DNA from: a virus
Length of the DNA: 37,264 bases
Direction: 5' to 3' (one strand)
Virus genome (UHGV): UHGV-0087839
Shown here: in pieces, positions 954 to 35,833 of the stretch
How the letters are laid out: every line of letters begins with the position of its first letter
Numbering within the stretch: position 1 is the first letter of the stretch
The notes under the pieces: model-generated
Told to the model about the DNA's origin: nothing
The model's input: the letters and a program-made list of their open reading frames with translations, nothing else
The model's database searches: none
Made by a program: the position numbers and the translations under genes

Positions 954-1511
954 TCAGATTAGGGCTATCTGCTGATTATTTAGCTTCTCCAATCTTTCAG
1001 ACAGTTTTATCTTATCTTCAACTTTTTCCAGCGATGATGCTGACATAAAGCTAATCAGCTTATCAATATCTTTAGGTTCTTTGATAAGAACAAACTCCCT
1101 TGTCTTATTAATGAAAACAGCTGAGTTTTTCTTTCTTGATAGCAACTCAATGACGTTGCTCAGTGTTCCCGGACTTTTTGTATCCCAAACCATAAGGCCA
1201 CAGTCTGCTGTTTCTGCCATCTTTATATCTTTGGCTGTGTAGAAATCTCGAGTTCCGGGTCGGAAGTTTGATTTAACGAGTTTCACGGGCCATGCACCAA
1301 AATTGTTTCGTGGCTTGGCATCACTAGTGAACACAGTGGTTGCGCTATAACCCAATTGTTTTAGTTCCAGCTGTACGGAAGAGTCAACGCCAGAGGCGTC
1401 ACCGACGATAACATTAAAGTTCTTGTCAACAATCTTCTTTAAGCGCTCAACGATAAGCGGGTCGAGCTTTTTAATGGTTATCGAGCCAGCAACGAAAACT
1501 GTCGTTGTCAT
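954..1511 (-). CDS. Rossmann-fold protein with SLOG/DprA/LOG-like signature (tentative); second gene of accessory cassette
   Basis: 185-aa ORF; N-terminal VFVAGS...VIVGDASGVD glycine-rich strand-loop pattern resembling DprA/YpsA/LOG (SLOG) nucleotide-binding domains; AT-rich relative to phage backbone; GGAG ribosome-binding site 6 nt upstream of the ATG; start 2 nt after the stop of the upstream gene. Confidence 0.6.
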   Translation of the reverse strand: MTTTVFVAGSITIKKLDPLIVERLKKIVDKNFNVIVGDASGVDSSVQLELKQLGYSATTVFTSDAKPRNNFGAWPVKLVKSNFRPGTRDFYTAKDIKMAETADCGLMVWDTKSPGTLSNVIELLSRKKNSAVFINKTREFVLIKEPKDIDKLISFMSASSLEKVEDKIKLSERLEKLNNQQIALI

Positions 1512-1513
1512 GG

Positions 1514-2101
1514 TTATCTCCAGGTTAGTGCTGCTACATAAATTTTATTGATTTTATTATAACCGCGTAACGCTGTAACTGCAGCTTCCATGGATGCTCC
1601 TGTATGGAAGAGATCATCAACGATGAGGGCATTAAAAGGGCCATCCCCGACAATTTGGTTTTGATAAGAAAAAGCGTCAGCAACAGCAGCTTCTTTCTCT
1701 TCTTTAGTGTTCAGATTTTTCAAAGACACGCCACCAGGTGCTTTGATTAATAACTCATTGAAGCTAAACATGTTATTTCCCATTTTTGATGCCAGAGCGT
1801 CAGTAATTGCTGTCACGGGTTGAATTTTTCGAACATTTGAAGCTGCCATTGGGATGATTAATTGTATGTTTTGAAAAAGAGGCACAGCATTAACTAATAG
1901 GCACTGGGCAAGCGCATCAACTTGGTCCATGTCATTTTGATATTTTAACTGGTATACGGCTTCTCCAACCTCCGTGCGATCGTTTTGAAACATAGGCTTG
2001 CCATACTCGTTATCACCTAAATAAGTACTCTTAATCAAATGCTTATCCATCGCGTAACCTAAATCCCAGTTACCCGTAATTGGCTTGATGTTTACTTTCA
2101 C
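1514..2101 (-). CDS. Phosphoribosyltransferase (PRTase, ComF-like) domain protein; first gene of accessory cassette
   Basis: 195-aa ORF with C-terminal PRPP-binding signature ALIVDDLFHTGASM (hydrophobic-DD-hydrophobic-x-TGxT); GTG start preceded by AAGGAAAG; AT-rich. Confidence 0.75.
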   Translation of the reverse strand: MKVNIKPITGNWDLGYAMDKHLIKSTYLGDNEYGKPMFQNDRTEVGEAVYQLKYQNDMDQVDALAQCLLVNAVPLFQNIQLIIPMAASNVRKIQPVTAITDALASKMGNNMFSFNELLIKAPGGVSLKNLNTKEEKEAAVADAFSYQNQIVGDGPFNALIVDDLFHTGASMEAAVTALRGYNKINKIYVAALTWR

Positions 2102-2334
2102 TACGCTTTCCTTGTTTGTTGTAATTGTTAATGAAGATACGCTAATTGGGAGTAATCCTAAAAGAAATCTTTAGTGAATTGTGAAGGCCGTTCGATCTTA
2201 TAGGGGAATTGAGTATTTTCTATTGAAGTACAATAGTTAGTGTCCGATCTTGGCATAGAGCGAACTGTTAGATTAGGTTTGGTTCTGTGCCGTAAGCGTG
2301 TCAGCTCTGAGCTGGGCTAATGCATCTAAATTGC

Positions 2335-3444
2335 TCACTCTGTTTCTGCTATCCATTCCGGGATTTTTGCTTCAAGCTCAAGCCGCGTGGTAAAACCGCT
2401 GTTATCAATAGAGTGCTCCGCTTTTGCAATAATCCAGTCCTGATTATCAATGTCGCTTTTGAAGCCTGTCACCGTGCCATGCATTTCGGGGTAGAGTTCT
2501 GCGCGGCCACGCGCCAGCGTGATGGAAAAAGATGCCGCTCCGCGCTGTAGCTGCTGCCACTTTGCAGCTGCTGCGCGCCTTGCTGCCTGCTCGTTCTGAT
2601 AAGTCTTGCGTAACACAAACACATTGCCTTCCGCGCCTTCCATATAATCACCTTCACGGCTGCTGCTTTTCTCCTTTTTGGGTTTTGGCGGTTTACGGCG
2701 TTTCACGCTGACTTTTTTCTTTTTCCCGTAATTAAGATCAAGCCAGTAGGCGCGTACCCCCGTATACGCCTCGCGGTCAGCAATGCGGAACTGATGGCGA
2801 TCGCCGCTGCTGCGTGTGATGGCGAACGATGGCAACGGCTGGCCCTGTGCGTTCACGCCACCGCCTGGCATGATGAATAACAGATTACCGCTTTTTACCG
2901 TGGTGATTGCGCCCAGCATTTCCGCCATGCGCGTAAGGAAGGACATGTCGCTTTCTTCGGTCTGGTCGGCGTGGTCGATTTCGATATCCATCAGCATTTC
3001 GCTGATTTGCGGTTTCAGACCGTACCGATGAGCGATGGCGGATACCACGCGCTCGACGGTCACATCATGCCAGGACACCTCACGTTTAACGTTAAATTCA
3101 TCCCGAAAATCTGCGCTTCTGGCTGAAACAGTCAGCCTGTCCGGCGGTCCTTCGTGAGCGATTTCATCAACAATGTAAGTGCCTTTTTCTGTCAGCGGTT
3201 CTCCCTTCCAGCCAATGAGAACCGTCAGGCGCGCGCCCCGTGGCGGTAGCTGCAACTGACCATCCGCATCATCCAGCGTGATGGTGAGCTGGTCCGCCTC
3301 AAATCCCCGGTTGTCGGTCAGTGACAGGCTCATCAGGCGCTCTGCCACGCCTGACAGCGTTTTACCCTCCGCGAGAATATCAAAATCCGGCATTTTTACG
3401 GGGTCTGTGCCCTGACTGAGCAATTGCATGGTGGTGTCGGTCAT
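2335..3444 (-). CDS. D: P2 gpD-like tail protein (late gene D)
   Basis: Translation closely resembles P2 gpD; start placed at the internal ATG (MTDTTMQLLSQ...) preceded by GGGAGGGAG; the track ORF extends further upstream to 3576. Confidence 0.85.
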   Translation of the reverse strand: MTDTTMQLLSQGTDPVKMPDFDILAEGKTLSGVAERLMSLSLTDNRGFEADQLTITLDDADGQLQLPPRGARLTVLIGWKGEPLTEKGTYIVDEIAHEGPPDRLTVSARSADFRDEFNVKREVSWHDVTVERVVSAIAHRYGLKPQISEMLMDIEIDHADQTEESDMSFLTRMAEMLGAITTVKSGNLLFIMPGGGVNAQGQPLPSFAITRSSGDRHQFRIADREAYTGVRAYWLDLNYGKKKKVSVKRRKPPKPKKEKSSSREGDYMEGAEGNVFVLRKTYQNEQAARRAAAAKWQQLQRGAASFSITLARGRAELYPEMHGTVTGFKSDIDNQDWIIAKAEHSIDNSGFTTRLELEAKIPEWIAETE

Positions 3445-3601
3445 CTGCTCCCTCCCTGTGTGGCATGGTCGCATGTGCGTGCGGAGGGGGTTACTGCTTT
3501 TTGTTGTCGCCGTGGCGGGAGAATGGCGCAGGGGTGAGATTACGCGCGTGGTGGGTGATGATTGTTGCCGAATCATTTAACGGATACAAGGGGCTGAAGC
3601 T

Positions 3602-4786
3602 ATGAGTGAAACTCGTTTTCATGGTGCCCGTGTTACGGAAAATACCGACCTGGTAACAGCGATTAACGATGTTGATTCCAGCGTTATCGGTATCGTGGCA
3701 ACGGCGGATGATGCGGACGCGAAGCTGTTCCCGCTGAACAAGCCCACACTGCTGACCCGCGTCAATGACGTGCTGGGAAAATGCGGGACAACGGGGACGC
3801 TTTATCGTGCGCTTAAGGCCATCGCAGACCAGGTGAGCACAAAGGTGATCGTCGTTCGCGTGGCTGAACACAAAGAAGAAGACGGAAAGACGCAGGATCA
3901 ACTGGTTATCGGTGGTTCTGAGGATGACGGCAGCTATACGGGGATGTATGCGCTGCTTGTTGCAGAGCTGGATGAAAGCATCGGATACCGTCCGCGTATT
4001 CTGGCCGCGCCGGAGCTGGACACGGAGGCTGTAACAAAATCCCTGTGCGTGATTGCAGGTAAACTGCGCGCGTTTGTGTATGCCTCATGTCACAGCTGTA
4101 ACACGATGGCTGAGGCGATTACCTACCGCCAGAAATTCAACGAACGTGAGGTGATGCTCTTATGGCCGGACTTCATCGCCTACAACCCGAAAAGTGGCAA
4201 AAACGAAACGTTCCCCGCGCCTGCCTATGCGTGCGGCCTTCGTGCGTACATTGACCATGAGCAGGGATGGCACAAATCACTGTCCAACGTTCCGGTTAAA
4301 AATGTGCTGGGGATGTCGAGGCATGTGTTCTGGTCGTTGCAGGCCGAAGACAGCGATGCCAACAGCCTCAACAACAAAGAAATCACGACCATTATTCGTC
4401 GCAACGGGTTCCGCTTCTGGGGCAACCGCACACCGGAAACGAACGCCTACATCTTTGAGGTGTATACCCGAACCGCACAGGTGCTGGCTGATTCAATTGC
4501 GGAAGCGCAGTTTGAAACCATCGACAGTCCACTGACGCCTGCGAACGTGAAGGATGTTATCAGTGCCATCAGGGCAAAACTGGATTCACTGGTTACTGCC
4601 GGGAAACTGATTGGCGCGGAGTGCTGGTATGACGTGGTGGATAACAGCACCACGGATTTACGTCAGGGGCGTGTGCGTATTCGCTACAAATATACGCCCG
4701 TTCCGCCACTGGAAGACATGGAGCTTTACCAGACGTTTACTGATGAATACTTTGAACCCGCATTTGCGGTTCTGGGAGGTGCCTGA
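3602..4786 (+). CDS. FI: Contractile tail sheath protein (P2 FI-like)
   Basis: 394 aa; long collinear similarity to P2 FI (e.g. FPLNKP, LRAF.Y, WPDF, GWHK.LSNV, IRR.GFRFWGNRT, YTPVPPLE). Confidence 0.9.
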   Translation: MSETRFHGARVTENTDLVTAINDVDSSVIGIVATADDADAKLFPLNKPTLLTRVNDVLGKCGTTGTLYRALKAIADQVSTKVIVVRVAEHKEEDGKTQDQLVIGGSEDDGSYTGMYALLVAELDESIGYRPRILAAPELDTEAVTKSLCVIAGKLRAFVYASCHSCNTMAEAITYRQKFNEREVMLLWPDFIAYNPKSGKNETFPAPAYACGLRAYIDHEQGWHKSLSNVPVKNVLGMSRHVFWSLQAEDSDANSLNNKEITTIIRRNGFRFWGNRTPETNAYIFEVYTRTAQVLADSIAEAQFETIDSPLTPANVKDVISAIRAKLDSLVTAGKLIGAECWYDVVDNSTTDLRQGRVRIRYKYTPVPPLEDMELYQTFTDEYFEPAFAVLGGA

Positions 4787-5298
4787 TGGCTGTGCCAAAA
4801 CATCTTCGCTTTTTTACGCTGTTTGTGGATGGAGAAAACGAAGTGGGTAAGGTGACGTCCGTCACTCTGCCCAAACTGACGCGCAAAACCGACAGCTACC
4901 GGGGTGGTGGCATGATGGGGGCGGTAAGTATTGATCTCGGTCTGGACGACTCTGCGCTTGATGCGAGCTTTGTCATGGGGGGCGCAGTTCGTGAGCTGTT
5001 CCTTAAGTATGGCGGCACGATTGACGGCACGCTGCTGCGTTTTGCGGGTGAATACTACACCGATGCAGAAAGCGACCTGTATGAAGTCGAAATGCGCGGA
5101 CGTGTGACGGAAATTGATATGGGGGAAGCCAAACAGGGCGAAGCCACATCACACACTTACGCCATTAAAAACACCTACTACAAGCTGAGTGTTAACGATC
5201 GCCCGTTGTGGGAGATTGACCTGCTGAACTTCATTTACCGGAAGGACGGCAAGGACATTGTGCCCGATCGCATCCGTTCCGCGCTTGGGCTTGGCTGA
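4786..5298 (+). CDS. FII: Tail tube protein (P2 FII-like)
   Basis: 170 aa, immediately follows FI with overlapping stop/start; size and position match P2 FII. Confidence 0.85.
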   Translation: MAVPKHLRFFTLFVDGENEVGKVTSVTLPKLTRKTDSYRGGGMMGAVSIDLGLDDSALDASFVMGGAVRELFLKYGGTIDGTLLRFAGEYYTDAESDLYEVEMRGRVTEIDMGEAKQGEATSHTYAIKNTYYKLSVNDRPLWEIDLLNFIYRKDGKDIVPDRIRSALGLG

Positions 5299-5352
5299 TA
5301 AGTAATATGCAGGCGGCGCAGTGCGTCGCCTCTGACTGAAAGGAGTTTCCTG

Positions 5353-5718
5353 ATGAAAGAGACGAAAAACATCGATACCGAAAACACGGTAGTTACTGAC
5401 ACTGTGAAAGAAACCAGTGAGCGTGGCGTAAAACTTACCCAACCAATTGAGCGAGGCGGCGAAAAAATCACGTATGTGGAGATCACCGGGGCTATTGAGC
5501 AGGCTGGATCTCTGCGAGATTTGTCGCTGTCTGATGTGCTGAATCTGAAAGCGGAATCCATGTTTACGCTGCTGTCACGCGTGACATCACCGCGACTGGA
5601 TGAAGTGACGATCAAAAAAATGGCATCCCGTGACTTTATTCAGTTATGTGTGGTTGCCGTAAATTTTTTGAGCGGTGCGGACTCTGGCGGGAAGAACGAA
5701 CAGGCGACGGAAGCCTGA
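5353..5718 (+). CDS. E: Tail assembly chaperone gpE
   Basis: 121-aa ORF between tube and tape-measure genes; contains slippery TTTTTTG near its 3' end. Confidence 0.75.
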   Translation: MKETKNIDTENTVVTDTVKETSERGVKLTQPIERGGEKITYVEITGAIEQAGSLRDLSLSDVLNLKAESMFTLLSRVTSPRLDEVTIKKMASRDFIQLCVVAVNFLSGADSGGKNEQATEA

Positions 5719-5882
5719 TCACGGTTGTGTGCTTTGAGCACATAGAAGACTATGTGGCAGATATTGCCGTTATTTTTAACTGGTCGCCCGCCGAAATCTT
5801 CATGATGACGCCCGGCGAAGTGGTTAGCTGGCGTGAGCGGGCGGCACTTCGCAGCGGGAATGCAGATAATGAAGACTCTTGA
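5646..5882 (+). CDS. gpE' extension frame (expressed as E+E' by -1 frameshift)
   Basis: ORF in the -1 frame relative to E, overlapping the E 3' end and ending just after the T start; canonical P2 E/E' arrangement. Confidence 0.65.
   Translation: MCGCRKFFERCGLWREERTGDGSLITVVCFEHIEDYVADIAVIFNWSPAEIFMMTPGEVVSWRERAALRSGNADNEDS
5664..5670 (+). other. Programmed -1 ribosomal frameshift slippery site TTTTTTG (E to E')
   Basis: Heptamer T-TTT-TTG positioned so that the E frame reads AAT-TTT-TTG and the E' frame reads TTT-TTT-GAG. Confidence 0.6.
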
Positions 5883-8676
5883 CATCCGGGTCGCTTTCAG
5901 CGCCGTTGACAGGCTGACCCGGCCTGCCGAAAACGCCCGCCGCCTGATGGGGCAGTTTGGTGACTCCATCCAGCGAACGCAGGGGGCGATCAAAAATCTC
6001 GAGCGTCAGGCGCGATCATTTGAGCGCGCCCGCGACGCTGTCAGTAAAGCGGATGCTGGCATCGTGAAAGCACGACGCCAGCTTAACGCCCTTAATCAGT
6101 TACAACGCACGGGTACAGTGCTCAGCGAAAAACAACAAAAGCTGATGCAGCAGTTAAGCACCCGGCTTGAACGCCTGAATGAATCGCGCACACGGGAAAT
6201 TCAGAAAATGCGGGAACTTGGCGGAGAGCTGAAACGCCACGGCATTTCCCTGACAGGCAGCGATAACACCATCCAGCAGGCCATCAGACGCACCGAACAG
6301 TACAACAACCAACTTGAACGCGAACGGCAGGCGCTTGCGCGTGTAACGCGGGCGCGTGAGCGGTATTCGCGCGCGCAGGAAACCGCGGGAAAACTGAAAA
6401 CAGGTGGTGCGCTGGCAATTGGTGCTGCAGCGGCTGGCGGCTATGCTGCTGGGCGTTTTTTGCAGCCTGCGATCGGGTTCGGCAAAGAGATGTCCCGCGT
6501 TCAGGCACTGACGCGAATCGACAAAAACAGCCCGCAGTTTAAGGCGCTGCGTGAGCAGGCGTTAAAACTTGGTTCTGAAACACAGTTTACTGCGAGTGAT
6601 GCCGCCAGTGGGCAGAGCTTTCTGGCAATGGCTGGTTTTACTCCGCAGGCCATTCAGGCCGCATTGCCCGGTGTTCTTAATATGGCGCTGGCAGGTGGCG
6701 TCGAACTCGGCGAGACGGCGGATATAGGCTCCAATATCCTCACACAGTTCAACCTGACAGCCGATCAAATGGACCGGGTGGGCGATACGCTGACAGCGGC
6801 ATTCACCCGGACCAATACTGATTTACGCGCGCTGGGCGAAACCATGAAGTATACCGGTCCGGTTGCCGCAAAACTTGGTATCAGTCTTGAAGAAGCGGCA
6901 GCCATGGCCGGGATGCTTGCCAATAATGGTCTTCGTGGAAGCGATGCTGGTACGGCCATGCGCGCAAGTCTGTCCCGCCTTGCATCACCGCCAAAAGCTG
7001 CGGCTGATGCGCTGAAAGAGCTGGGGGTGTCAGTTGCTGACGCCAGAGGCAAAATGCGCCCGATGGAGGATGTGCTGCTTGATCTCTATAAGGCGACACA
7101 AAAATACGGACAGGTGGACCAGGTCTCCTTCTTCAAGGACATCGCCGGAGAAGAGGCGTTCGTTGGTTTGCAGACGCTTGTTGCGGCGGCTGGTTCAGGA
7201 GAGCTGCAAAAACTGACCAGAGAATTGCAGGGGGCAAGGGGAGAGGCCGATCGCGTTGCAAAAGTAATGGCCGATAATCTTGATGGGGACCTGAAAAATC
7301 TCGACAGCGCATGGGAAGGTCTTCGTATTCGCATCAGTGATCTGGTTGACGGTCCGCTGCGTTCTGTCACGCAGTGGCTCACGTGGGTGCTTGAAAAAAT
7401 CACCTCGCTGGCGCAGGCCCATCCGGTACTGACGCGCCAGCTACTGATAGCAGGCGGTGCGTTGCTGGCAATGACTGCAACGGTTGGCTCGTTGTCGCTG
7501 GCTATTGGTGTGCTTGCTGGCCCGCTGGCAAAACTGCGTCTTGGCTTTTCCCTCCTGACCGGTTCAATGAATGCTGTCAGACTCCTGCCAGCACTATGGG
7601 GAATGGTGACGGGTTCCGTTTCGTTACTGGGGGGCGCTATCGGGGCGTTGTTCAGTCCGGTCGGTCTTATCGTGGCTGCGCTTGCCGGAGCTGCCGTTCT
7701 CATCTGGAAATACTGGGATCCCATCAGGGCATTTTTTGCCGGGGTGTTCAGCGGGATTATGGAAAGGCTGACCCCGTTGCGCGAAACCTTTGAACGGTTT
7801 GGTCCTGTTTTTGACGCAATCGGAAGCGGGATCAGCCAGGTGTTTAACTGGTTTAAATCGCTGTTGTCACCGATGGAGTCCAGCAAGGAAACGCTGGATA
7901 AATGTACCAGTGCTGGCGAGATATTCGGTAACGTTCTTGGCGGTGCGTTACAACTTGTTCTGACACCTGCAAAAATGCTACTGGATACGCTGGCGTGGAT
8001 ACTTGAAAAACTTGGCGTCCTTCCGGATGAAGCGGAAAGGGCGCGCAAGAAAATCGAAGACGCACAGCGTGCGGCCATTCTTCAGGACAAGGTTGCCTTA
8101 CTTCAGGGGGACCTGGCGAAAATCAATCCACCTAAGCCTGTGGAAAATGGCAATGGCACCGGAGGTGATAAACCCAAAGACAACAAACCGCTCACAGACA
8201 GCAATACTGGGACGCTACGCAGACTCAGCAAAATTGCTGATAACACAGGTAAGTTGGTTGATGAGACGAAAAAACGCATTGGCCCCGGCGATATTGTCTT
8301 TAAGAACCTGCCCCGCGCACTTGCTGTTCGTGGGGAGTGGCAGGAGCGGAAGATTGCACAGGTCAGTAAGCCTGCCCCCGCAATTAATATCACCCCCGTG
8401 GTCCCGGCTCCGCTGCCTCCGGCGCTGGTCCCTGTTGTTGCGGCCAGCTCCCGCCCGGTGGCGGAGGCCATACGATCTCCAGTGGCATCAGTTCCTGTAA
8501 CTTCCCGTAACCGGGAGCCTGTTGCCTCCGGATTTGGTGGTGAAATTCATGTTCATCTGCATAACGTTGTTACGCAGAATCCCCGCGAACTGGCGAAACT
8601 GGTCGGTGAAATGGTCAGGGCAGAAATGGAACGGCGCGCCCGTGCCGGGCGTGGCAGTTTTTACGATAAAGATTGA
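5863..8676 (+). CDS. T: Tail tape measure protein gpT
   Basis: About 940 aa, coiled-coil-rich N-terminus and Gly/Ala-rich hydrophobic central segments typical of tape measure proteins; lies between E/E' and U. Start approximate (ATG at 5863 or 5872). Confidence 0.85.
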   Translation, partial: QIMKTLDIRVAFSAVDRLTRPAENARRLMGQFGDSIQRTQGAIKNLERQARSFERARDAVSKADAGIVKARRQLNALNQLQRTGTVLSEKQQKLMQQLSTRLERLNESRTREIQKMRELGGELKRHGISLTGSDNTIQQAIRRTEQYNNQLERERQALARVTRARERYSRAQETAGKLKTGGALAIGAAAAGGYAAGRFLQPAIGFGKEMSRVQALTRIDKNSPQFKALREQALKLGSETQFTASDAASGQSFLAMAGFTPQAIQAALPGVLNMALAGGVELGETADIGSNILTQFNLTADQMDRVGDTLTAAFTRTNTDLRALGETMKYTGPVAAKLGISLEEAAAMAGMLANNGLRGSDAGTAMRASLSRLASPPKAAADALKELGVSVADARGKMRPMEDVLLDLYKATQKYGQVDQVSFFKDIAGEEAFVGLQTLVAAAGSGELQKLTRELQGARGEADRVAKVMADNLDGDLKNLDSAWEGLRIRISDLVDGPLRSVTQWLTWVLEKITSLAQAHPVLTRQLLIAGGALLAMTATVGSLSLAIGVLAGPLAKLRLGFSLLTGSMNAVRLLPALWGMVTGSVSLLGGAIGALFSPVGLIVAALAGAAVLIWKYWDPIRAFFAGVFSGIMERLTPLRETFERFGPVFDAIGSGISQVFNWFKSLLSPMESSKETLDKCTSAGEIFGNVLGGALQLVLTPAKMLLDTLAWILEKLGVLPDEAERARKKIEDAQRAAILQDKVALLQGDLAKINPPKPVENGNGTGGDKPKDNKPLTDSNTGTLRRLSKIADNTGKLVDETKKRIGPGDIVFKNLPRALAVRGEWQERKIAQVSKPAPAINITPVVPAPLPPALVPVVAASSRPVAEAIRSPVASVPVTSRNREPVASGFGGEIHVHLHNVVTQNPRELAKLVGEMVRAEMERRARAGRGSFYDKD

Positions 8677-8682
8677 GGAGTC

Positions 8683-9177
8683 ATGGCCATGATGATGATC
8701 TACGGCATGTTTGTTTTTGAGCTGCGCACGTTGCCGCATCAGCAGTTACAGCAAAACAAAAGCTGGCGGCATGTGAAAAATGAACGCGTTAACCGTTCAG
8801 CAAGCTGGCAGTATATCGGGGCAGGCGATGATCGCATCGTTCTTTCTGGTGTGCTTTATCCTGAAATTACAGGTGGCGAAGTGTCGCTTTCGTTGCTGAC
8901 CACACAGGCATATACAGGACGCCCCTGGCCTCTGATTGATGGTGTCGGGCAGATTTACGGCATGTATGTCCTGACCGGAACGAATACGACCCGCTCCGAG
9001 TTTGATCGCTACGGTAAGGCGAAAAAGATAGAATTTTCACTGTCTCTTGAACGCTGTGATGAGGATTTGCGGGAGCGCCTGCAATCCTCATCGTTCAGTG
9101 ATATGCTGTCCGGCTTCAAAGATAAGGTCACATCATCCCTTAACAGCGCGGCCAGCTCCGTTAAAGGGCTGTTTTGA
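8683..9177 (+). CDS. U: Tail protein gpU
   Basis: 164 aa; N-terminus MAMMMIYGMFVFELRTLPHQ resembles P2 gpU; follows T. Confidence 0.85.
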   Translation: MAMMMIYGMFVFELRTLPHQQLQQNKSWRHVKNERVNRSASWQYIGAGDDRIVLSGVLYPEITGGEVSLSLLTTQAYTGRPWPLIDGVGQIYGMYVLTGTNTTRSEFDRYGKAKKIEFSLSLERCDEDLRERLQSSSFSDMLSGFKDKVTSSLNSAASSVKGLF

Positions 9178-9188
9178 TTAACGCAAAA

Positions 9189-9214
9189 CCGCTAATGGTC
9201 AGATTAGCGGTTTT
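9189..9214 (+). terminator. Hairpin with T-tract between convergent U and invertase genes (possibly bidirectional)
   Basis: CCGCTAAT-GGTCAG-ATTAGCGG followed by TTTT; A-run on the 5' side gives a T-run on the opposite strand. Confidence 0.45.
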
Positions 9215-9803
9215 CATTTTCCTGAGTCTGCCTGGTTGTTTCTTCAGCCTGTATATCGCCTACAGGGTGATAACGATAAATCGTCGATATGCCGATGTCG
9301 TAAATGATCGCCAGTTGTTTCCTGTCATGACCGTTTTTAATCAGCCTCGCTATTTGCTCGTGTTGTTCTTTTGTCAACTTCGGGCGACGTCCGCCAATGC
9401 GTCCTTGTGCGCGTGCTGCTGCCAGCCCGGCCAGTGTACGCTCTACAATTAATTCACGTTCCATTTCGGCTAAAGCCCCCATGACGTGAAAAAAGAAACG
9501 CCCCATGGGTGTTGATGTGTCAATGCTGTCCGTCAGACTACGGAAATTAACACCTTTTTCCCGCAATTCCTCAATAAGCGTGATCAGGTGTTTCATACTT
9601 CTGCCCAGTCTGTCCAGCTTCCAGACAACCAGCGTATCTCCTTCTGATAGCGTTCTGAGCAGTTTTTTCAATCCCGGTCTGGCTGATTTCGTTCCGCTGA
9701 TTTTATCTTCAAAAATCAGTTCACATCCTGCGCAGTTCAGTGCATTGCGTTGTAAATCCGTGTTCTGGTCATTTGTTGACACACGAATATAGCCAATTTG
9801 CAT
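9204..9803 (-). CDS. Serine DNA invertase, Hin/Gin/Cin/Pin family
   Basis: Translation MQIGYIRVSTNDQNTDLQRNAL... matches the resolvase/invertase catalytic N-terminus (serine in RVST); C-terminal HTH; AAAGAGG ribosome-binding site 9 nt upstream of the ATG at 9803. Confidence 0.9.
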   Translation of the reverse strand: MQIGYIRVSTNDQNTDLQRNALNCAGCELIFEDKISGTKSARPGLKKLLRTLSEGDTLVVWKLDRLGRSMKHLITLIEELREKGVNFRSLTDSIDTSTPMGRFFFHVMGALAEMERELIVERTLAGLAAARAQGRIGGRRPKLTKEQHEQIARLIKNGHDRKQLAIIYDIGISTIYRYHPVGDIQAEETTRQTQENENR

Positions 9804-9857
9804 AAAAAACATCCTCTTTGTTTCGTGAAAAATACATAGTTGGTATAGGTAGGGATA

Positions 9858-9883
9858 AAGACGAAAACGTTGGTTTGGGGGAA
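9858..9883. repeat. Invertase crossover site (gix/hix-like), copy A
   Basis: 26-bp sequence whose reverse complement TTCCCCCAAACCAACGTTTTCGTCTT resembles hix/gix sites; sits at the 5' edge of a roughly 200-bp segment repeated three times. Confidence 0.55.
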
Positions 9884-10303
9884 GGCTCTGCGCTGCCCGT
9901 TGGTGTGCCCGTTCCATGGCCCTCAGCCACGCTGCCAACGGGGTGGCTGAAATGTAACGGCGCAGCATTTTCTTCTGAAATGTACCCCAATCTGGCAAAG
10001 GCCTACCCCACCAATAAATTACCGGATTTACGGGGCGAATTTATTCGTGGCTGGGATGATGGACGTGGTGTGGACAATGGGAGAGCATTATTAAGCAGCC
10101 AAGAGGCTACAAATTTTTCTCAGCGTGCCGGAAATATAGGCGATGGTGCGGGCCACGCAATTAATTTTCATGATGGCATAGTCGGAAATCAGCCAGGATT
10201 TTCACGATTTAATTTCACCAGTAACTCTGTAGGCGATGGTATAAATTTTGTTGCTGTCAGGCCGCGAAATATCGCATTTAATTACATCGTAAGGGCAGCA
10301 TGA
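9884..10303 (+). CDS. Promoterless alternative tail-fibre C-terminal cassette A
   Basis: Encodes GLGEGSALPVGVPVPWP...KLPDLRGEFIRGWDDGRG, near-identical to the C-terminal region of H on the opposite strand, then a divergent core and the shared ending RPRNIAFNYIVRAA. Confidence 0.65.
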   Translation, partial: GSALPVGVPVPWPSATLPTGWLKCNGAAFSSEMYPNLAKAYPTNKLPDLRGEFIRGWDDGRGVDNGRALLSSQEATNFSQRAGNIGDGAGHAINFHDGIVGNQPGFSRFNFTSNSVGDGINFVAVRPRNIAFNYIVRAA

Positions 10304-10322
10304 AAACGTTGGTTTGGGGGAA
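10297..10322. repeat. Invertase crossover site (gix/hix-like), copy B
   Basis: Second direct copy of the site; contains the stop codon of cassette A. Confidence 0.55.
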
Positions 10323-10772
10323 GGCTCTGCACTGCCCGTTGGTGTACCTGTTCCATGGCCCTCAACCACGCCGCCAACGGGGTGGCTGAAATGTAACGGC
10401 GCAGCATTTTCTTCTGAAATGTATCCCAGACTGGCAATGGCTTACCCCACCAATAAATTACCGGATTTACGCGGTGAATTTATCCGTGGCTGGGATGATG
10501 GGCGCGGGGTGGATGCCGGAAGGGGCATCTTAAGCATGCAGGGGTGGTTAACAGGAAGTCATTATCATAATATTCGGTCATGGGACGCGTGGGATAACAC
10601 GGTACTGGTGCCAAATGACAAAGGAGGGGATAGTCTGTTGTCGACAGATAACGCCGTCCGGCAAGGTGCAATTAACGGTAGATTTACCAGTCAATACAGA
10701 ACGGAATCCTCAGGGGGGAATGAAACCCGCCCACGCAATATTGCCTTCAATTATATTGTGAGAACCGCATAA
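10323..10772 (+). CDS. Promoterless alternative tail-fibre C-terminal cassette B
   Basis: Same conserved 5' segment and RPRNIAFNYIVRTA ending as cassette A and H, with a different central core. Confidence 0.65.
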   Translation, partial: GSALPVGVPVPWPSTTPPTGWLKCNGAAFSSEMYPRLAMAYPTNKLPDLRGEFIRGWDDGRGVDAGRGILSMQGWLTGSHYHNIRSWDAWDNTVLVPNDKGGDSLLSTDNAVRQGAINGRFTSQYRTESSGGNETRPRNIAFNYIVRTA

Positions 10773-11383
10773 TGAATAACGCGATATTAAATGATGACCT
10801 TATTGCCGTACAGGCAGGAAACATCGTCGTTTATAACTATGATAGTGAGACACGGGAATATATTTCCGAATCAACTGAATATCTTGCTGTGGGTGTCGGT
10901 ATTCCGGCAAATTCCTGTTTAGATGCCCCGGGCGCACATAAAGCGGGCTATGCTATCCGCCGTTCGGAGAATTTAAGTTCATGGGAGTATGCGCCAGACC
11001 ATCGTGGTGAAACCGTCTATAGCACTGACACGGGAAACACCGAAGAAATCACGGCGCTGGGTGACTACCCGAAAAATACAACCACTATCGCCCCGTTAAC
11101 ACCATACGATAAATGGGATGGTGAAAAATGGGTGACAGATACTGAGGCACAACATCGTGCCGCAGTAGAAGCGGCAGAAACCAAGCGCCAGTCACTGGCT
11201 GATGCGGCAATGGCTTCCATAAGTCTGATTCAGTTGAAGTTGCGGGCCGGGCGGAAGTTGACGCAGGCAGAAACCACCCGGCTTAATGCCGTGCTGGATT
11301 ATATAGACGCGCTGAACGCAATGGATATAAACATGGCACCAGATATCAACTTGCCGGAAATACCACTGGCAGCAGCCAGTTGA
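10772..11383 (+). CDS. Tail fibre assembly protein (Tfa/gpG-like)
   Basis: 203-aa ORF whose start overlaps the cassette B stop (TAATG); position and size fit a fibre chaperone within an invertible segment. Confidence 0.7.
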   Translation: MNNAILNDDLIAVQAGNIVVYNYDSETREYISESTEYLAVGVGIPANSCLDAPGAHKAGYAIRRSENLSSWEYAPDHRGETVYSTDTGNTEEITALGDYPKNTTTIAPLTPYDKWDGEKWVTDTEAQHRAAVEAAETKRQSLADAAMASISLIQLKLRAGRKLTQAETTRLNAVLDYIDALNAMDINMAPDINLPEIPLAAAS

Positions 11384-11389
11384 ATATAA

Positions 11390-13003
11390 CTAAGCCGCCC
11401 TCACGATATAGTTAAATGCAATATTGCGGGGGCGGGTTTCACTACCACCTGTGTTACCAATACTTCCTCGTGAATGAAGCGTTGGTGATGGAATCAAACT
11501 CCCTCCTGTATTTGCGGCATCAAGCCCCCTGCCTTGTGTATATGTTTTTTTGAAAATCGTAGCCAACTCCCATTCATCTTTTGTGTCATATCCATCGTTA
11601 GCTACAACAATATGGCGGTGTTTTTCCAACATCCCGTTTTGAATGCTCAATAAAGCGCGTGCCGCATCAATTCCTCGCCCATCATCCCAGCCACGGATAA
11701 ATTCACCGCGTAAATCCGGTAATTTATTGGTGGGGTAGGCTTTTGCCAGTTTGGGGTACATTTCAGAAGAAAATGCTGCACCGTTACATTTCAGCCAGCC
11801 CGTTGGTGGTGTTGCTAAGGGCCACGGAACGGGCACACCAACGGGCAGTGCAGAACCTTCTCCTAAACCAAGGTAATCAAGAACTCCCTGAGTGCTGGTT
11901 TTACCAAGAATGGCACGTCCAACACTTGTCAACGCGGTTAACGCGGCACGATCTGCCCCTGTAAAATATGGGAGTTTATCTGCTGATGTAGCAAGCTCCG
12001 CCAGCGCCGTCAGGGTGGCATCCTTCGGTTGCTTACCCGCAAGCGCGTTAGTCATGGTGGTCGCAAAATTCGGGTCATTGCCCAGCGCCGCAGCCAGTTC
12101 GTTCAGCGTGTTCAGTGCATCAGGTGACGAATCTACAAGTGCGGCAATCGCGGCCATAACGAAAGCCGTGCTTGCGATCTGGGTACTATTAGTCCCCTGT
12201 GGCGCTGTTGGTGTTGTTGGCGTTCCGGTCAGTGCCGGGCTGTTTAATGGTGCTTTCTTGTTCGTTTCATCCATTACCGCCTTAACAGCTTTTGGTGTCG
12301 CTGCCAGCGTTTCAGACGTGCTGTTCGTGGCGCTACTGAGCTGAACAATTCCTTTTTGTGTAGTGGTGGCGTTCTGGGCGGTATATTTCCCGTTAGCCAA
12401 GTCATATGCAGCCTTAACCGCTTTCGGTGTTGCGGCCAGTGTTTCTGATTCACTGTTAATTGCACTGCTTAACTGAGTAAAACCTTTTACGGTCAGCGAG
12501 GCGTCCGGGTGACGTCGTGACTGTTCGTGCTCTGAGATTTTATCATCCACATATTTGCGGGTTGCCAGAACCACAGACGGGTCGATTTTCAGCGTGATGG
12601 CTTCGGTGTTCGTGACAACCAGAATCATGCGGATAGTCTGGGTGCGTCCACTGCCTTCCTGCAACTGCGGTTTGTACGTTTCCGGGCAGTTTGCCACCGC
12701 AATGAGTACACCTTCATCATCATAAAGACCAATCTCACGGATCCAGAATCCTCCCTCGTTTTCAGGGATGATTTGCTCCGCAATAATCTGGCTCTGATTG
12801 TTAGGGTCAACACTCAGAAGATTCAGCGGTGCAATGCGTTTCTGGTTAATCAGTTTTGTTTGTGCAGGGTCTGGTGTTGGTAACACACCATTTGCATCAC
12901 CAACGGCCATTTGCGTCAGATTCAGCTTACTGCCGAGCATCGTCGCGTTAGCCAGTCGTGCCGCGCCCTGATTAGTCAGAATGGCGTAGTATTTCACTGT
13001 CAT
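11390..13003 (-). CDS. H: Tail fibre protein gpH (currently expressed variant)
   Basis: 537 aa; N-terminus resembles P2 H (MAVGD...LP.PD..QT.LI, GGFW.RE.GLYDD.G.LIAVAN, EHEQSRRHPDASL); internal SETLAATPKAVKA tandem repeat; C-terminal part shares the conserved segment with cassettes A and B. Confidence 0.9.
   Translation of the reverse strand: MTVKYYAILTNQGAARLANATMLGSKLNLTQMAVGDANGVLPTPDPAQTKLINQKRIAPLNLLSVDPNNQSQIIAEQIIPENEGGFWIREIGLYDDEGVLIAVANCPETYKPQLQEGSGRTQTIRMILVVTNTEAITLKIDPSVVLATRKYVDDKISEHEQSRRHPDASLTVKGFTQLSSAINSESETLAATPKAVKAAYDLANGKYTAQNATTTQKGIVQLSSATNSTSETLAATPKAVKAVMDETNKKAPLNSPALTGTPTTPTAPQGTNSTQIASTAFVMAAIAALVDSSPDALNTLNELAAALGNDPNFATTMTNALAGKQPKDATLTALAELATSADKLPYFTGADRAALTALTSVGRAILGKTSTQGVLDYLGLGEGSALPVGVPVPWPLATPPTGWLKCNGAAFSSEMYPKLAKAYPTNKLPDLRGEFIRGWDDGRGIDAARALLSIQNGMLEKHRHIVVANDGYDTKDEWELATIFKKTYTQGRGLDAANTGGSLIPSPTLHSRGSIGNTGGSETRPRNIAFNYIVRAA
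11858..11883. repeat. Invertase crossover site within H (TTCTCCTAAACCAAGGTAATCAAGAA), inverted relative to copies A and B
   Basis: Resembles hix/gix consensus (TTCT...AAACCAAGG...); at the constant/variable junction of H. Confidence 0.6.
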
Positions 13004-13608
13004 GCGTTTACTCTCAGATTATCAATTAAATGAATGGCTGGGGCAGGGAAATAATCCCCTTCGACAATAATGGACTCCGGGGTGTAGGGATAAACCGTCA
13101 GGGCATCGCCGTGATAGCATCCCGTACCAACGAAAATCTTTCCGTTCACACTCAGGCTGATCGCCAGCCCCGTCAGATGGCGACTTACTGGTTTTGCATC
13201 CGCAATAAGGCGCTCAAGTTCCTGATACATTTCATCGGTGATGCCCTGATCAAGTACTCCGACAACAATGCGAAATGTTCCCGGCTCCTCGTTGAGTTGC
13301 CACCACTCCTTTACTTCAATCAGGTAGCCGAGAGGCTCCACGGCTCTTCGCAGTGCGCTGATGGTCCCTTTGTGTCGGTGTATCAGCCATGCATCACGAA
13401 TCACCTGTCGCTTTGTCTCTTCCGGCCAGTTGCGATCCCAGCGGTCAACGGAAAACGCCCAGGCGAGATAAGGCAGCAGATGCACCGGGCAGGTGTCCGG
13501 CGACCACAGCGTGTTGAGGTCTACCGGAATGTCTGTAATGCGTGTTCCGACGGCTTCGGCACAACGCATGAAATTGCTGGCTGATGGTGGTAACAACGAA
13601 TTACTCAT
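13000..13608 (-). CDS. I: Baseplate protein gpI
   Basis: Translation from the internal ATG (MSNSLLPP...) resembles P2 gpI (W.PDTCP..LLP.LAWAFSVDRWD..WPE..KR.VIRDA); start overlaps the J 3' end. Confidence 0.85.
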   Translation of the reverse strand: MSNSLLPPSASNFMRCAEAVGTRITDIPVDLNTLWSPDTCPVHLLPYLAWAFSVDRWDRNWPEETKRQVIRDAWLIHRHKGTISALRRAVEPLGYLIEVKEWWQLNEEPGTFRIVVGVLDQGITDEMYQELERLIADAKPVSRHLTGLAISLSVNGKIFVGTGCYHGDALTVYPYTPESIIVEGDYFPAPAIHLIDNLRVNA

Positions 13609-24787: not shown

Positions 24788-26992
24788 TTACGTGTCGAGA
24801 GAAATTTGTGTGCGCAGTTGAATAGGATTCAGAATTGTATATCGCTGGCGAATAACATTATATAAATCAAAGTCTTTTACCCTTACGCTTATTACCATCG
24901 CATATCGCATATCAGGGGCTGAAACTCCCTTAACATGGCGCGAAGAATCTCGGGCATGATACCGTATATCAAAAACTGGATCGCTTAATAATGTATCAGC
25001 ACTGAACTTTTTGCTTCTGTGCAAACAAGTTTCCCACTTATGACCTTCACTCCTACACTCCCTTTCAGTCTTATACTGGCTTTTTTGACCAAAGAAATCA
25101 TCTGTATCGGTATCGTCAAGGCCGAATCTTGGGCGGAAAGTTACCTGCATACCGGCCCTTGTATAGTTTACTGAATGTTCAGGATCTACTGGGGTTTGAA
25201 TGCATAAAGTAGCGGTAAGCTCAAATGCTTCGTCAAAGGGAACATCAGGGAATGGGATCGGTGCCCTTAAATATTTATTTTTTGCTAATGAACCATAGTA
25301 AATTACTGTAGCAGTATCATTTGGACAATCGATTAAAACGTTAGGATCCTCACTAAACCGTCCCCAACCGATATGTTCACGCGAATATTTTCTTGATGTT
25401 TCAGCATGATGAACAAGCAACGCTTTCAATGCAATGGTGTTCAATGGAGTTCCTGATAGAGCCGCAACTCCAGCGGCCGTTCTCAATGCTAATGGAGAGG
25501 CATAACTGGTTCCTTGAACTCCAACTATAGAACCAAGCAGAGGGTTGTAAGTGTAAAAAGGCTCGTCGTCGCTTCCACCAAAAATAACACCATCAGGTTT
25601 AACGAATCCGGGGCTTCTGCCTGGCCCAATACAGCTATATGGTGCCCGCCCCCATTTTTCATCGCTACGATCAGCAGCACCAATCGCTAGCGCGTTTACC
25701 ATATCAGAAGGAGGTTGTATTCTCGCTGCATCACCGTCCTCATTGCCATCATTCCCAACAGCAACAGTAAGTAATATCCCATGTTTAGCACAGATTTGGT
25801 CTAAAACAGCAGTCCATACATGAACCTCATCATCACCAATTGGAAGATGAGGACCAATACTTAGATTAGCGAACTTATAGTCACCACTATCAAGAACGGA
25901 CTGTATTTTCTTAAGGACATCAAATAAATCCCAATTGCCATTGTCACCTGATGTCGGTGAAAGAACTCTATAATGATCTACATTCATAAACGGTCTTTTA
26001 AAAGAAGGTGCATTTTCCTCGACACGTCCGAATAAGAAAGTGGATGTCACTTCATTACCGTGCTGCAATAATAATCCGCTTGTTTCTTTGGTGTCTGGAT
26101 ACACGTATTCCGTAACCCAATTACTCAAGTCAGCTGTCCCCAAGCCACCATCAAAAATGGCAATACGTTCGGATTCAAGAACAGCTTTAGAATTAGGGAG
26201 CTCCGGTGTAACTATATTAGATAACTTTCTGACAATGTTCGGCTGAGTACACCTGAGAGACGGCATCGGCCGCACAACGCGGATTAATGAAAAATCGAGT
26301 GTTTTTTTCATATCTTCAGGTCGCGCGTGTGCAACGATGAAAGTCAGCCCACCAACTTGGATTCTACTTTTGTAATCAACAGAGACATCATATTGTGCCG
26401 CATAGCTAATATAGGCTTTAACGATATCATCGTCTTCAACCCCAGCATGAAGAACCACTTCAAATTTTATCAAATCACTTTTCGCATGCTCAAAATTGCG
26501 TGCTCTCTCTTTTCCTTCAAAAAAGCTAACACTTTCAATTTCGATCAAATCCTTTTGTACGCCCTTCGGAGCTGTAGGGGAATTTAAAATTTCCTTAAAT
26601 CTTATAACGGCATCATCATCACCGCTAACAAACAGTTGCGCCGTTACTAAGTCCTTATTCTGATCGCACTGACGTGCCGCTTTCCGTGGGCGAATGATTA
26701 CCTGACGGCTACCGACATCCCGTAAACCTGTCGCTCTAAGCAATCCTTCCGGAAAGTAGCTTTTACCCAAAAACGCTGGGTGTAAAGTTAAATTGAATAC
26801 ACTCTCCCCCCTTGGCTTAGCCGCATCATCCAAACTGCGAAAGCGTGAGAGTAAAGTATCAATCTCTGGGTTTAAATGCTCCCTTACTTCTTCAAGAGTA
26901 TAGGGATAGCGCTTACCATCCCTTCCTTTAGGCAAAGGTTCCTTTTTTGTCAGAACATGACCGTTACCTAAAAGTAAGTTCCTTTCCATCAT
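24788..26992 (-). CDS. Subtilisin-like serine protease (peptidase S8) with N- and C-terminal extensions
   Basis: 734 aa; ordered Asp (IAIFDGG), His (VHVW) and Ser (GTSYASP) catalytic motifs plus oxyanion GN; AT-rich; start overlaps the upstream ATPase stop (ATGA). Confidence 0.8.
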   Translation of the reverse strand: MMERNLLLGNGHVLTKKEPLPKGRDGKRYPYTLEEVREHLNPEIDTLLSRFRSLDDAAKPRGESVFNLTLHPAFLGKSYFPEGLLRATGLRDVGSRQVIIRPRKAARQCDQNKDLVTAQLFVSGDDDAVIRFKEILNSPTAPKGVQKDLIEIESVSFFEGKERARNFEHAKSDLIKFEVVLHAGVEDDDIVKAYISYAAQYDVSVDYKSRIQVGGLTFIVAHARPEDMKKTLDFSLIRVVRPMPSLRCTQPNIVRKLSNIVTPELPNSKAVLESERIAIFDGGLGTADLSNWVTEYVYPDTKETSGLLLQHGNEVTSTFLFGRVEENAPSFKRPFMNVDHYRVLSPTSGDNGNWDLFDVLKKIQSVLDSGDYKFANLSIGPHLPIGDDEVHVWTAVLDQICAKHGILLTVAVGNDGNEDGDAARIQPPSDMVNALAIGAADRSDEKWGRAPYSCIGPGRSPGFVKPDGVIFGGSDDEPFYTYNPLLGSIVGVQGTSYASPLALRTAAGVAALSGTPLNTIALKALLVHHAETSRKYSREHIGWGRFSEDPNVLIDCPNDTATVIYYGSLAKNKYLRAPIPFPDVPFDEAFELTATLCIQTPVDPEHSVNYTRAGMQVTFRPRFGLDDTDTDDFFGQKSQYKTERECRSEGHKWETCLHRSKKFSADTLLSDPVFDIRYHARDSSRHVKGVSAPDMRYAMVISVRVKDFDLYNVIRQRYTILNPIQLRTQISLDT

Positions 26993-29760: not shown

Positions 29761-29851
29761 CGGGATTTTTAAATCCCGCTTTCGCCTGTTTTGTGCGCGC
29801 TTCATATATCGCGGCGCGTTTTTTGCTCATTTGCGGGATTTGTGAATCCCG
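29761..29851. promoter_or_regulatory. Candidate parC-like centromere/promoter: two 18-bp palindromes CGGGATTT..AAATCCCG about 73 bp apart upstream of parM
   Basis: CGGGATTTTTAAATCCCG (29761..29778) and CGGGATTTGTGAATCCCG (29834..29851) read directly; the second lies inside the 3' end of gene A. Confidence 0.4.
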
Positions 29852-35475: not shown

Positions 35476-35784
35476 ATGCTTATCGGTGAAAAAATTAGAG
35501 TGATTCGTGAATCAGAGGGTTTAACGCGCGAAGAATTTTGCGGCCTGATTGATGTGCCTATCGGCACTTTGCGTCGTTATGAAACGGGGCGGATTGAAAA
35601 CATAGGGGGCGAAGTGCTTATCAAGATTGTTAATCACCCTCGCTTTTTTAAGTACATGAATTGGCTTATGACAGGAAAAACGAATGAGGCTGCTGGGCAG
35701 ATCAGTCCCTCTCTCTCCCCTGATGGGCCAGAAAACACATCGTCTTCTCAAAAGCCCCGCAAGACTGGTACACAGCCCGGCTAA
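35476..35784 (+). CDS. C: Immunity repressor C
   Basis: Translation from the internal ATG (MLIGEKIRVIRESEGLTREEF...) resembles P2 C repressor (ISEKIVLMRKSE.L.R..L, GQI.P.L motif region). Confidence 0.8.
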   Translation: MLIGEKIRVIRESEGLTREEFCGLIDVPIGTLRRYETGRIENIGGEVLIKIVNHPRFFKYMNWLMTGKTNEAAGQISPSLSPDGPENTSSSQKPRKTGTQPG

Positions 35785-35833
35785 TCATGGAACGCTGGGG
35801 GCATGGTGGTCTTGTAACGCTGGGGTTTCACGA

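Follow-up and report, generated by a model that had tools for sequence, protein, structure and literature searches.

The closest described counterpart of the locus reported here belongs to a P2-like prophage of EPEC E2348/69, in which Goldberg et al. (2014, Genome Med 6:112, PMC4272514) demonstrated flipping at three repeats by sequencing and PCR. They described three 215-bp inverted repeats, two overlapping inversions (NC_011601.1 1891695-1893703 and 1892127-1893703), four PCR-validated coexisting DNA variants and three C-termini, and termed this double inversion 'complex phase variation' (PMC4272514). A three-cassette tail-fibre switch is therefore already known, since the same locus was shown experimentally in that strain in 2014 (PMC4272514).

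More distant relatives are the Gin-driven G segment of Mu, the Cin-driven C segment of P1 and the PinE-driven P segment of e14, each with two sites, two states and a tfa (U/U') of its own for every variable part. A multiple-inversion system, Min of p15B, was reportedly described by Iida in 1990 and by Sandmeier, Iida and Arber in 1992, and is reported to comprise six sites and 240 isomers. In Min, one Din-family serine invertase acts on more than two sites, and a single constant 5' part of a fibre gene is served by several 3' cassettes that lack promoters. If states are counted as 2(k+1)!, six sites yield 240, the number reported for Min. The design principle of inversion switches goes back to Mu, P1 and p15B, and the present locus opens no new question. 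It lies in the window, the whole 37,264-nt stretch of the viral genome UHGV-0087839 analysed here, and very probably represents a multiple DNA-inversion switch of the Min type, carried by a P2-like prophage (Peduoviridae) of E. coli.

Results

The features of the locus are collected in Table 1. Its invertase aligns over the full length with the Gin structures in PDB (3UJ3/4M6F, E about 1e-90) and keeps the catalytic Ser9 within YIRVSTNDQ. Its sequence shares 82.5% identity with PinE, 73.7% with Cin, 73.0% with Gin and 97.2% with the enzyme encoded by the P1-like plasmid pKOr024_2. Together with its Resolvase and HTH_7 domains, the Gin alignment confirms the Hin/Gin-family assignment made in the initial annotation; the 264-aa ORF with a TTG start that had been taken for the gene gives way to the 199-aa frame. 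In NCBIfam, neither H nor tfa matched a family, and all hits of the invertase fell below threshold.

Table 1. Features of the tail-fibre switch locus, in window coordinates
Feature	Position	Strand	Remarks
Terminator-like hairpin between the gpU and invertase genes	9185-9214		12-bp stem
DNA invertase gene (serine recombinase, Gin/Pin/Cin/Min family)	9204-9803	-	199 aa, intact; Pfam Resolvase 1.8e-45, HTH_7 1.3e-12
Putative recombinational (Fis) enhancer in the invertase 5' end	9714-9785	-	CDS nt 19-90; alignment to P1 cin
Crossover site A	9858-9883	+	AAGACGAAAACG TT GGTTTGGGGGAA; core TT 9870-9871; left half is invertase flank, right half cassette head
Repeat, first copy	9863-10097	+	
Silent cassette A, type gamma	9872-10303	+	143 aa; promoterless fibre 3' end; Pfam Collar 3.9e-14
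Crossover site B	10297-10322	+	AGCATGAAAACG TT GGTTTGGGGGAA; core TT 10309-10310; left half is tail of cassette A
Repeat, second copy	10302-10536	+	
Silent cassette B, type beta	10311-10772	+	153 aa; always directly upstream of tfa; Pfam Collar
Tail-fibre assembly gene tfa	10772-11383	+	203 aa, single copy; Pfam Caudo_TAP 1.8e-31
Tail-fibre gene H, whole CDS	11390-13003	-	537 aa
Cassette alpha, currently expressed	11390-11869	-	159 aa; tail-to-tail with tfa
Repeat, third copy	11640-11879	-	
Crossover site H, within the fibre gene	11858-11883	-	TTCTTGATTACC TT GGTTTAGGAGAA (read on the - strand); inverted relative to A and B
Constant 5' part of H (P2 gpH-like)	11884-13003	-	Pfam Phage_tail_fib 1.5e-62, Phage_fiber_2 repeats

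The 5' end of the invertase gene aligns without gaps with the annotated enhancer of P1 cin (NC_005856.1 31678-31749), with 57 of 72 positions identical, a value confounded by coding constraint; the adjacent next 72 nt share 43 of 72. Two blocks, TCAACAAATGA and GCAGGATG, are kept in the coding regions of gin, cin, pinE and the window's invertase gene. Judging by this alignment, a Fis-dependent enhancer may lie here, at the same position as the one annotated in P1; in Din-family systems such cis-acting elements are usually located near the start of the invertase gene.

A search with a degenerate 20-mer (up to 3 mismatches) found exactly three 26-bp gix-like sites across the 37-kb window and no fourth, where shuffles (n=100) lead one to expect 0. 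Each site consists of 12-bp half-sites flanking a 2-bp core, and the non-palindromic TT core is common to A, B and H. The right half-site, GGTTT(G/A)GG(G/A)GAA, agrees with the repeats that Goldberg et al. give for e14 and Mu (PMC4272514). It also forms the first 12 nt of the repeat, coding G-L-G-E; differences among the three sites are confined to their left half-sites. Site A aligns with Mu gixR, and the distance to the invertase start, about 55 bp, is the same in both. Every non-core cassette is a self-contained module that opens with a right half-site, continues with the sequence coding for the tip and has its stop codon within a left half-site; the TGA of cassette A falls within the left half of site B.

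The repeat itself is 235-240 nt long and its three copies are 85-89% identical. The two direct copies match over 235 nt (89%), and the inverted pairs 10301-10540 x 11640-11879 and 9867-10102 x 11639-11874 over 240 and 236 nt, respectively (85% each). The triplicate segment of roughly 200 bp noticed at the outset, twice direct and once inverted inside H, is thus real. A 26-bp site does accompany each copy, as had been proposed; it does not lie upstream, however, but straddles the 5' edge of the repeat.

Joined in frame to H, gamma would yield a 521-aa fibre and beta a 531-aa one. Such junctions exist in nature: gamma is fused to H in DLI.5a, 23CRST001 and CB9615, H is contiguous with beta in AR_0013, D72, KOr024 and the E2348/69 assembly CP059840.2, and between them related E. 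coli prophages display contiguous H-gamma, H-beta and H-alpha. The constant part of H is 98.8-100% identical across the five closest isomeric loci (L001-L005).

What a cassette encodes is suggested by the T4 gp37 tip (PDB 2XGF), which cassette alpha resembles in the collar (residues 6-72, E 2e-17) and at the extreme C-terminus, where NIAFNYIVR also matches within ...NIAFNYIVR.A. The needle and head of gp37 are unrelated to those of the cassettes and much longer. The parts conserved at the head and tail of every cassette thus match the two ends of the chain, which come together in the gp37 collar, and the cassette ends are conserved because each cassette resembles this fibre tip. A gp37-like collar fold is the better explanation for conservation of the tail RPRNIAFNYIVRAA. 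One detail needs correction: cassette B ends in ...NYIVRTA and not ...VRAA.

Only cassette B is followed by a co-oriented tfa, on which H converges, just as first described; among related loci, tfa occurs once per locus and always after beta (14/14). A sequence search of Tfa against PDB gave no match. In the arrangement of the window (state I), tfa is antisense to H, which, alongside the lack of a promoter match, counts against the switch explanation. A sigma-70 scan found no promoter-like site on the + strand between the invertase start and tfa, and promoter-like counts in 9100-13100 equal the shuffle background. A late promoter of the Ogr type, reading from the invertase flank into the cassettes and tfa, was considered and rejected: although a perfect TGT-N12-ACA dyad lies at 9819-9836, the window has 6 such dyads against 9.3 expected, and the motif is absent from the phage's own late-operon intergenic regions.

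In the switch favoured here, the single Tfa would serve cassettes that never share its orientation. In a further reading, cassettes would move in an integron-like manner, through rare invertase-mediated excision and insertion, and tfa, expressed irrespective of orientation, would encode a universal chaperone acting in trans. Arrays of up to 8 stacked cassette modules do occur, and the modules reappear, sometimes as identical proteins, in P1-like plasmids as well as P2-like prophages. Homologous recombination at the conserved heads and tails explains such sharing equally well, and we consider this further reading unlikely.

The E. coli DLI.5a prophage (L003) allowed the crossover points to be mapped, a check proposed in the initial annotation. 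It has an identical invertase protein and the same three cassettes (variable parts of gamma and beta 100% identical to the window's, alpha 99.6%) in an arrangement two inversions away (state IV). At all three of its junctions the left half-site remains with its flank, whereas, with the exception of three short patches (positions 76 and 128-146), almost every diagnostic SNP in the conserved 215-nt head moves along with its cassette. Each exchange is thereby located between site positions 12 and 20, in the 7-bp TTGGTTT that includes the core.

This pattern weighs heavily against a RecA-dependent origin of the rearrangements, by homologous recombination between inverted repeats of 215-240 bp, with the invertase incidental. 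The repeats are long enough and similar enough (85-92% identity) for such a process, and the small mosaic patches, notably at head positions 128-146, suggest that some homologous gene conversion between repeats also occurs. Yet all three DLI.5a junctions change parentage in the same 7 bp, and of roughly 40 diagnostic positions downstream nearly all stay linked to their cassette. Moreover, sites of the gix/cix/pix type adjoin an intact Gin-family enzyme, and variants present at 10-50% within single colonies (PMC4272514) require rates far above those of mutation-like events. We therefore regard RecA as a highly improbable driver of the rearrangements.

The orthologous E2348/69 locus, 97.9% identical over 95% of window positions 8600-13100, shares with the window the three-site layout, the alpha and beta cassettes, the single tfa, four DNA states and three C-termini. 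The published coordinates (PMC4272514) coincide with, or lie within 8 bp of, the site cores that we mapped in this locus (L005). Its two assemblies encode identical cassette proteins and differ in arrangement by one whole-segment inversion; neither shows state I, the state of the window. The invertases are one residue apart, and the third cassette is a different one, gamma' (GTSFSHYGGNF...) in E2348/69 versus gamma (ATNFSQRAGNIG...) in the window.

That the arrangement is frozen in the window's strain, with the cassettes mere silent remnants, has very little probability: H-fused gamma is frameshifted in 19AR1321 and CB9615, 19AR1321 is without the middle site and the tfa of 23CRST001 carries an IS, but in the window the invertase, three sites, three cassettes and tfa are all intact, and loci in other states (L001, L003 and L004) encode an identical invertase protein.

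Discussion

Taken together, the data favour a Min-type switch that would operate as follows. A single Gin/Pin-family serine invertase would recombine the three 26-bp TT-core sites. The fixed 5' part of H terminates in a left half-site, and promoterless alpha, beta and gamma each open with a right half-site and code for a whole tip of the gp37 type, with a collar, a variable needle and head for receptor binding, and a strand that returns into the collar. Recombination of site H with either oppositely oriented site would invert the intervening DNA and place another cassette in frame with H. Three sites would thereby give four DNA states and three fibre proteins (537, 531 and 521 aa). In state I, that of the window, H is joined to alpha and tfa is antisense; in state II, beta is joined to H and tfa comes next; in states III and IV, gamma is joined to H, with beta and tfa behind it in III, and with alpha behind it and tfa again antisense in IV. 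From each state, two others would be reachable through a 'small' or a 'big' inversion.

The predicted swap of the H C-terminus by inversion with site A or B is upheld by the in-frame fusions, the natural isomers and the published flipping of the E2348/69 ortholog. In the window's own strain, the identical invertase and intact sites suggest that the switch is active, and a change of tip would probably alter host range. Nothing here supports a lower fitness of the present orientation; a lysogen population holds a mixture of orientations.

Among known systems, Min is the proper comparison: the window has three sites for one invertase, one constant 5' part and three promoterless 3' cassettes, although it is a P2-like prophage, and Min sits on a P1-like plasmid with six sites. 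Related loci with 2-9 cassettes and one tfa occur on both P2-like prophages and P1-like plasmids. One such plasmid, with a 97%-identical invertase, has 9 cassettes of the same types and an identical H-side half-site. An invertase of a P1-like plasmid is 98.5% identical to that of Min (PMC6906374). The Mu, P1 and e14 systems share with the window the enzyme family (73-82.5% identity), the 26-bp site type and the fusion of alternative fibre 3' ends. The window differs from the two-state G/C-segment layout of two sites and two Sv-tfa pairs in having three sites, four states and one tfa. The label 'shufflon-like' is apt for a multi-state switch by analogy only. Like the R64/IncI shufflon, the locus would choose among C-termini of one adhesin by multi-site inversion, but the shufflon uses the tyrosine recombinase Rci, 19-bp sfx sites and a pilV target, whereas here a serine recombinase, gix-like sites of 26 bp and a phage fibre are involved.

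The phages P88 (Xuanwuvirus) and 500465-2 (Gemsvirus) share the tape-measure/gpU/invertase order with the prophage, yet keep a two-cassette, two-tfa layout. That the T-U and V-W-J-I-H operons point in opposite directions was considered as a sign of a large invertase-driven inversion, an idea rejected because this is the normal gene order in both phages.

If the switch operates as proposed, one prophage could release virions with three receptor-binding tips, which would amount to a host-range bet-hedge. This is relevant to predictions of phage host range and to the interpretation of genome annotations: assemblies of one strain differ at the switch locus, and RefSeq annotates each silent cassette as a 'phage tail protein' gene in its own right.

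Repeats, crossover sites and cassettes

The initial annotation described a segment present three times, two copies being direct and one inverted. A repeat finder and a three-way alignment agree on this, and the three-copy observation is confirmed: the segment measures 235-240 nt, the direct copies are 89% identical and the inverted copy shares 85% identity with each of them. Every copy does come with a 26-bp gix/cix/pix-type site; however, this does not precede the copy as proposed, since the copy begins inside the site. The right half-site, which codes for GLGE, makes up the repeat's initial 12 nt. As for the left half-sites, that of site A is part of the invertase flank, that of site B part of the tail of cassette A and that of site H part of the constant region of the fibre gene H, and the TGA stop of cassette A sits within site B. 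Searching the 37 kb with a degenerate 20-mer (up to three mismatches) returned all three sites and no others, against a chance expectation of 0.

Each of the three cassettes is intact and can be read in frame with H, the fusions being 537 aa long for alpha (the current state), 531 aa for beta (cassette B) and 521 aa for gamma (cassette A). The reported common ending needs a small correction, as cassette B reads VRTA rather than VRAA. In every cassette, a variable middle part containing HxH motifs lies between a head of ~65 aa and a tail of 14 aa, both conserved. Two stretches of alpha match the receptor-binding tip of T4 gp37 (PDB 2XGF): one at the collar (residues 6-72, E 2e-17) and one at the very C-terminal end (...ETRPRNIAFNYIVRAA vs ...NTVKNIAFNYIVRLA). 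In the published gp37 structure the chain follows the needle out to the head and then turns back, and because its two ends meet in the collar, head and tail of the cassettes are conserved. The fold itself calls for the 14-aa tail, which does not have to serve as a chaperone tag. RefSeq gives the silent, promoterless cassettes CDSs of their own, named 'phage tail protein' (loci L001-L014), and in the window they appear as ORFs with TTG starts; these separate entries are annotation artefacts of the switch.

Coordinates of the switch and of other prophage features in the window
Feature	Position	Strand	Remark
195-aa protein	1514-2101	-	PADLOC PsyrT-like, weak (E 1e-7)
Tail sheath	3602-4786	+	
Tape measure	5833-8676	+	
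gpU	8683-9177	+	
Invertase (CDS proper)	9204-9803	-	199 aa; Resolvase + HTH_7
Putative Fis enhancer	9714-9785		CDS nt 19-90
Cassette ORF	9818-10303		TTG start
TGT-N12-ACA dyad	9819-9836		perfect; P2 Ogr-box form
Site A	9858-9883		AAGACGAAAACG-TT-GGTTTGGGGGAA
Direct repeat	9863-10097	+	
Site B	10297-10322		AGCATGAAAACG-TT-GGTTTGGGGGAA
Direct repeat	10302-10536	+	
Cassette ORF	10314-10772		TTG start
tfa (tail-fibre assembly)	10772-11383	+	
Baseplate V-W-J-I and fibre H	H, 11390-13003	-	
Inverted repeat	11640-11879	-	
Site H	11858-11883	read on -	TTCTTGATTACC-TT-GGTTTAGGAGAA
Capsid, terminase, portal	19-24 kb		
IetA/IetS pair	24788-28071	-	
IetS (S8 subtilase)	24788-26992	-	PADLOC E 2e-41
IetA (AAA ATPase)	26989-28071	-	PADLOC E 3.6e-89
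ParM-like actin	28766-29725	-	StbA_N + ParM_N, E 2e-82
gpA	29802-32669		
Integrase	35684-36808		

Invertase and putative enhancer

The invertase aligns end to end with Mu Gin crystal structures (E ~1e-90), keeps the catalytic serine and is 82.5% identical to e14 PinE, 73.7% to P1 Cin and 73.0% to Mu Gin; the enzyme of the P1-like plasmid pKOr024_2 is 97.2% identical. Site A, ~55 bp from the invertase start codon, has a similarly placed counterpart in gixR of Mu. Early in the invertase CDS, 72 nt align without gaps to the annotated P1 cin enhancer with 57/72 identities, compared with 43/72 for the next 72 nt. This fits a putative Fis enhancer, but falls short of proof since the region also codes for the catalytic motif. 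The Ogr-type dyad that lies between the invertase start codon and site A is probably due to chance: the window contains no excess of the motif (6 seen, 9.3 expected), and it is absent from the late intergenic regions of this phage.

Rearrangement of the segments among relatives

E. coli DLI.5a carries the same prophage, with flanks 99.4-99.5% identical, an identical invertase protein and the same three cassettes (variable parts of gamma and beta 100%, of alpha 99.6% identical). Its order is H|gamma> alpha> <tfa <beta | invertase and that of the window H|alpha> <tfa <beta <gamma | invertase, two inversions apart. The left half-site remains with its flank at each of the three DLI.5a junctions, and the 215-nt conserved head moves with the cassette at almost every diagnostic SNP, the exceptions being three short patches (positions 76 and 128-146). 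The change of parentage falls between site positions 12 and 20, a TTGGTTT stretch containing the TT core; confinement to this stretch is the signature of site-specific, not homologous, exchange. Likewise, two E2348/69 assemblies with identical cassette proteins, NC_011601.1 (H|gamma'> alpha> <tfa <beta) and CP059840.2 (H|beta> tfa> <alpha <gamma'), are one whole-segment inversion apart. When 5,426 complete E. coli genomes were queried with synthetic junctions, contiguous one-piece matches were obtained for H-gamma (three at >=99%), H-beta (five at >=96%) and H-alpha (five at >=98%).

The number of possible arrangements can be derived from the layout. The region is bounded by two fixed left half-sites, those of H and the invertase flank. 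These enclose one double-headed core, in which beta-tfa and alpha stand tail to tail, together with k single-headed modules, each running from a head to a stop within a left half-site. The arrangements number 2(k+1)!, which for six sites amounts to 240; the p15B Min system reportedly has 240. With k = 1, the window would have four states: H-alpha with tfa antisense (I, observed), H-beta followed by tfa (II), H-gamma followed by beta and tfa (III), and H-gamma followed by alpha with tfa antisense (IV). A small inversion would link I with II and III with IV, and a big one I with III and II with IV.

This predicted graph reproduces the published one for EPEC E2348/69, whose single-colony populations were sequenced by Goldberg et al. 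2014 (PMC4272514). Its P2-like prophage locus shows 'two interlaced funnels', partly homologous 215-bp inverted repeats (n=3) and four coexisting, PCR-validated variants, with forward fractions of ~90% for the big and 49 +/- 37% for the small inversion (NC_011601.1 1891695-1893703 and 1892127-1893703; PMC4272514). These coordinates coincide with, or lie within 8 bp of, the three site cores that we mapped there, and the printed repeat starts ACC-TT-GGTTTGGGGGAAGG, which is the H junction. Window 8600-13100 is 97.9% identical to that locus over 95%; the two are orthologs, the sole difference being the type of the third cassette. The suggestion that more than two sites make a multi-state switch rather than a Mu G-type flip holds, with four predicted states matching the E2348/69 variants. 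The reading as a fibre switch driven by a Hin/Gin-family invertase is likewise supported by the intact enzyme, natural isomers, core-mapped crossovers and this precedent. As a class, such switches are established knowledge (Mu, P1, e14, p15B Min), and in E2348/69 this very locus has been described before.

Orientation of tfa

H and tfa are co-oriented in states II and III only, and alpha is intact in all loci examined though never upstream of tfa. Window promoter and Ogr-type dyad searches found no tfa promoter for the antisense states. Either unrecognised transcription supplies a Tfa that acts in trans, or these tips depend on Tfa less than Mu S and P2 H do. There is precedent for a broadly trans-acting chaperone: phage lambda Tfa can substitute for T4 gp38 in trans.

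The wider family and the prophage

Our survey covered 12 chromosomal loci and two P1-like plasmids, with at least eight cassette types and always a single tfa directly 3' of beta. There are two cassettes in STEC1590 and AR_0013, three in the window, DLI.5a, E2348/69 and 19AR1321 (decayed), four in Z1323CEC0018, five in CB9615 and 266917_2, at least five in 23CRST001, six in GF66.2 and nine in pKOr024_2. CB9615 and pKOr024_2 share one identical cassette protein, WP_059279521.1. Matches to the module are present in 245 PLSDB plasmids from Escherichia, Salmonella, Klebsiella and Shigella; most of these are non-mobilizable, and the top ones measure ~90-97 kb. The window accordingly represents a Min-type system that is widespread, in one of its smaller forms.

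Individual members have their own peculiarities. The pKOr024_2 array (1395-9070), a tail-fibre gene with nine cassettes and one tfa, has an identical H-side half-site, TTCTTGATTACC, and a second, frameshifted recombinase fragment nearby (962-1139). Decayed switch copies occur in 19AR1321 (L001, 5776-5790 and 5992-6227) and CB9615 (L010, 4230-4453), where the H-fused gamma is frameshifted, leaving 73 aa beyond GLGEG; in 19AR1321 a ~56-bp deletion took out the middle crossover site and the system is partly locked. In the state III-like array of 23CRST001 (L009, 5132-7081), the single tfa is split by ISVsa5 (IS4-like).

As a whole, the window represents a complete E. coli prophage of the P2-like type (Peduoviridae). 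An invertase likewise separates the opposed T-U and V-H operons in the related phages P88 (Xuanwuvirus) and 500465-2 (Gemsvirus), where this is the normal layout. The anti-phage defence pair IetA/IetS adjoins the portal gene, the usual P2 accessory hotspot. The ParM-like actin gene adjoins the gpA replication gene of this integrating, P2-like prophage, and the 195-aa protein gene adjoins the gpD-like gene.
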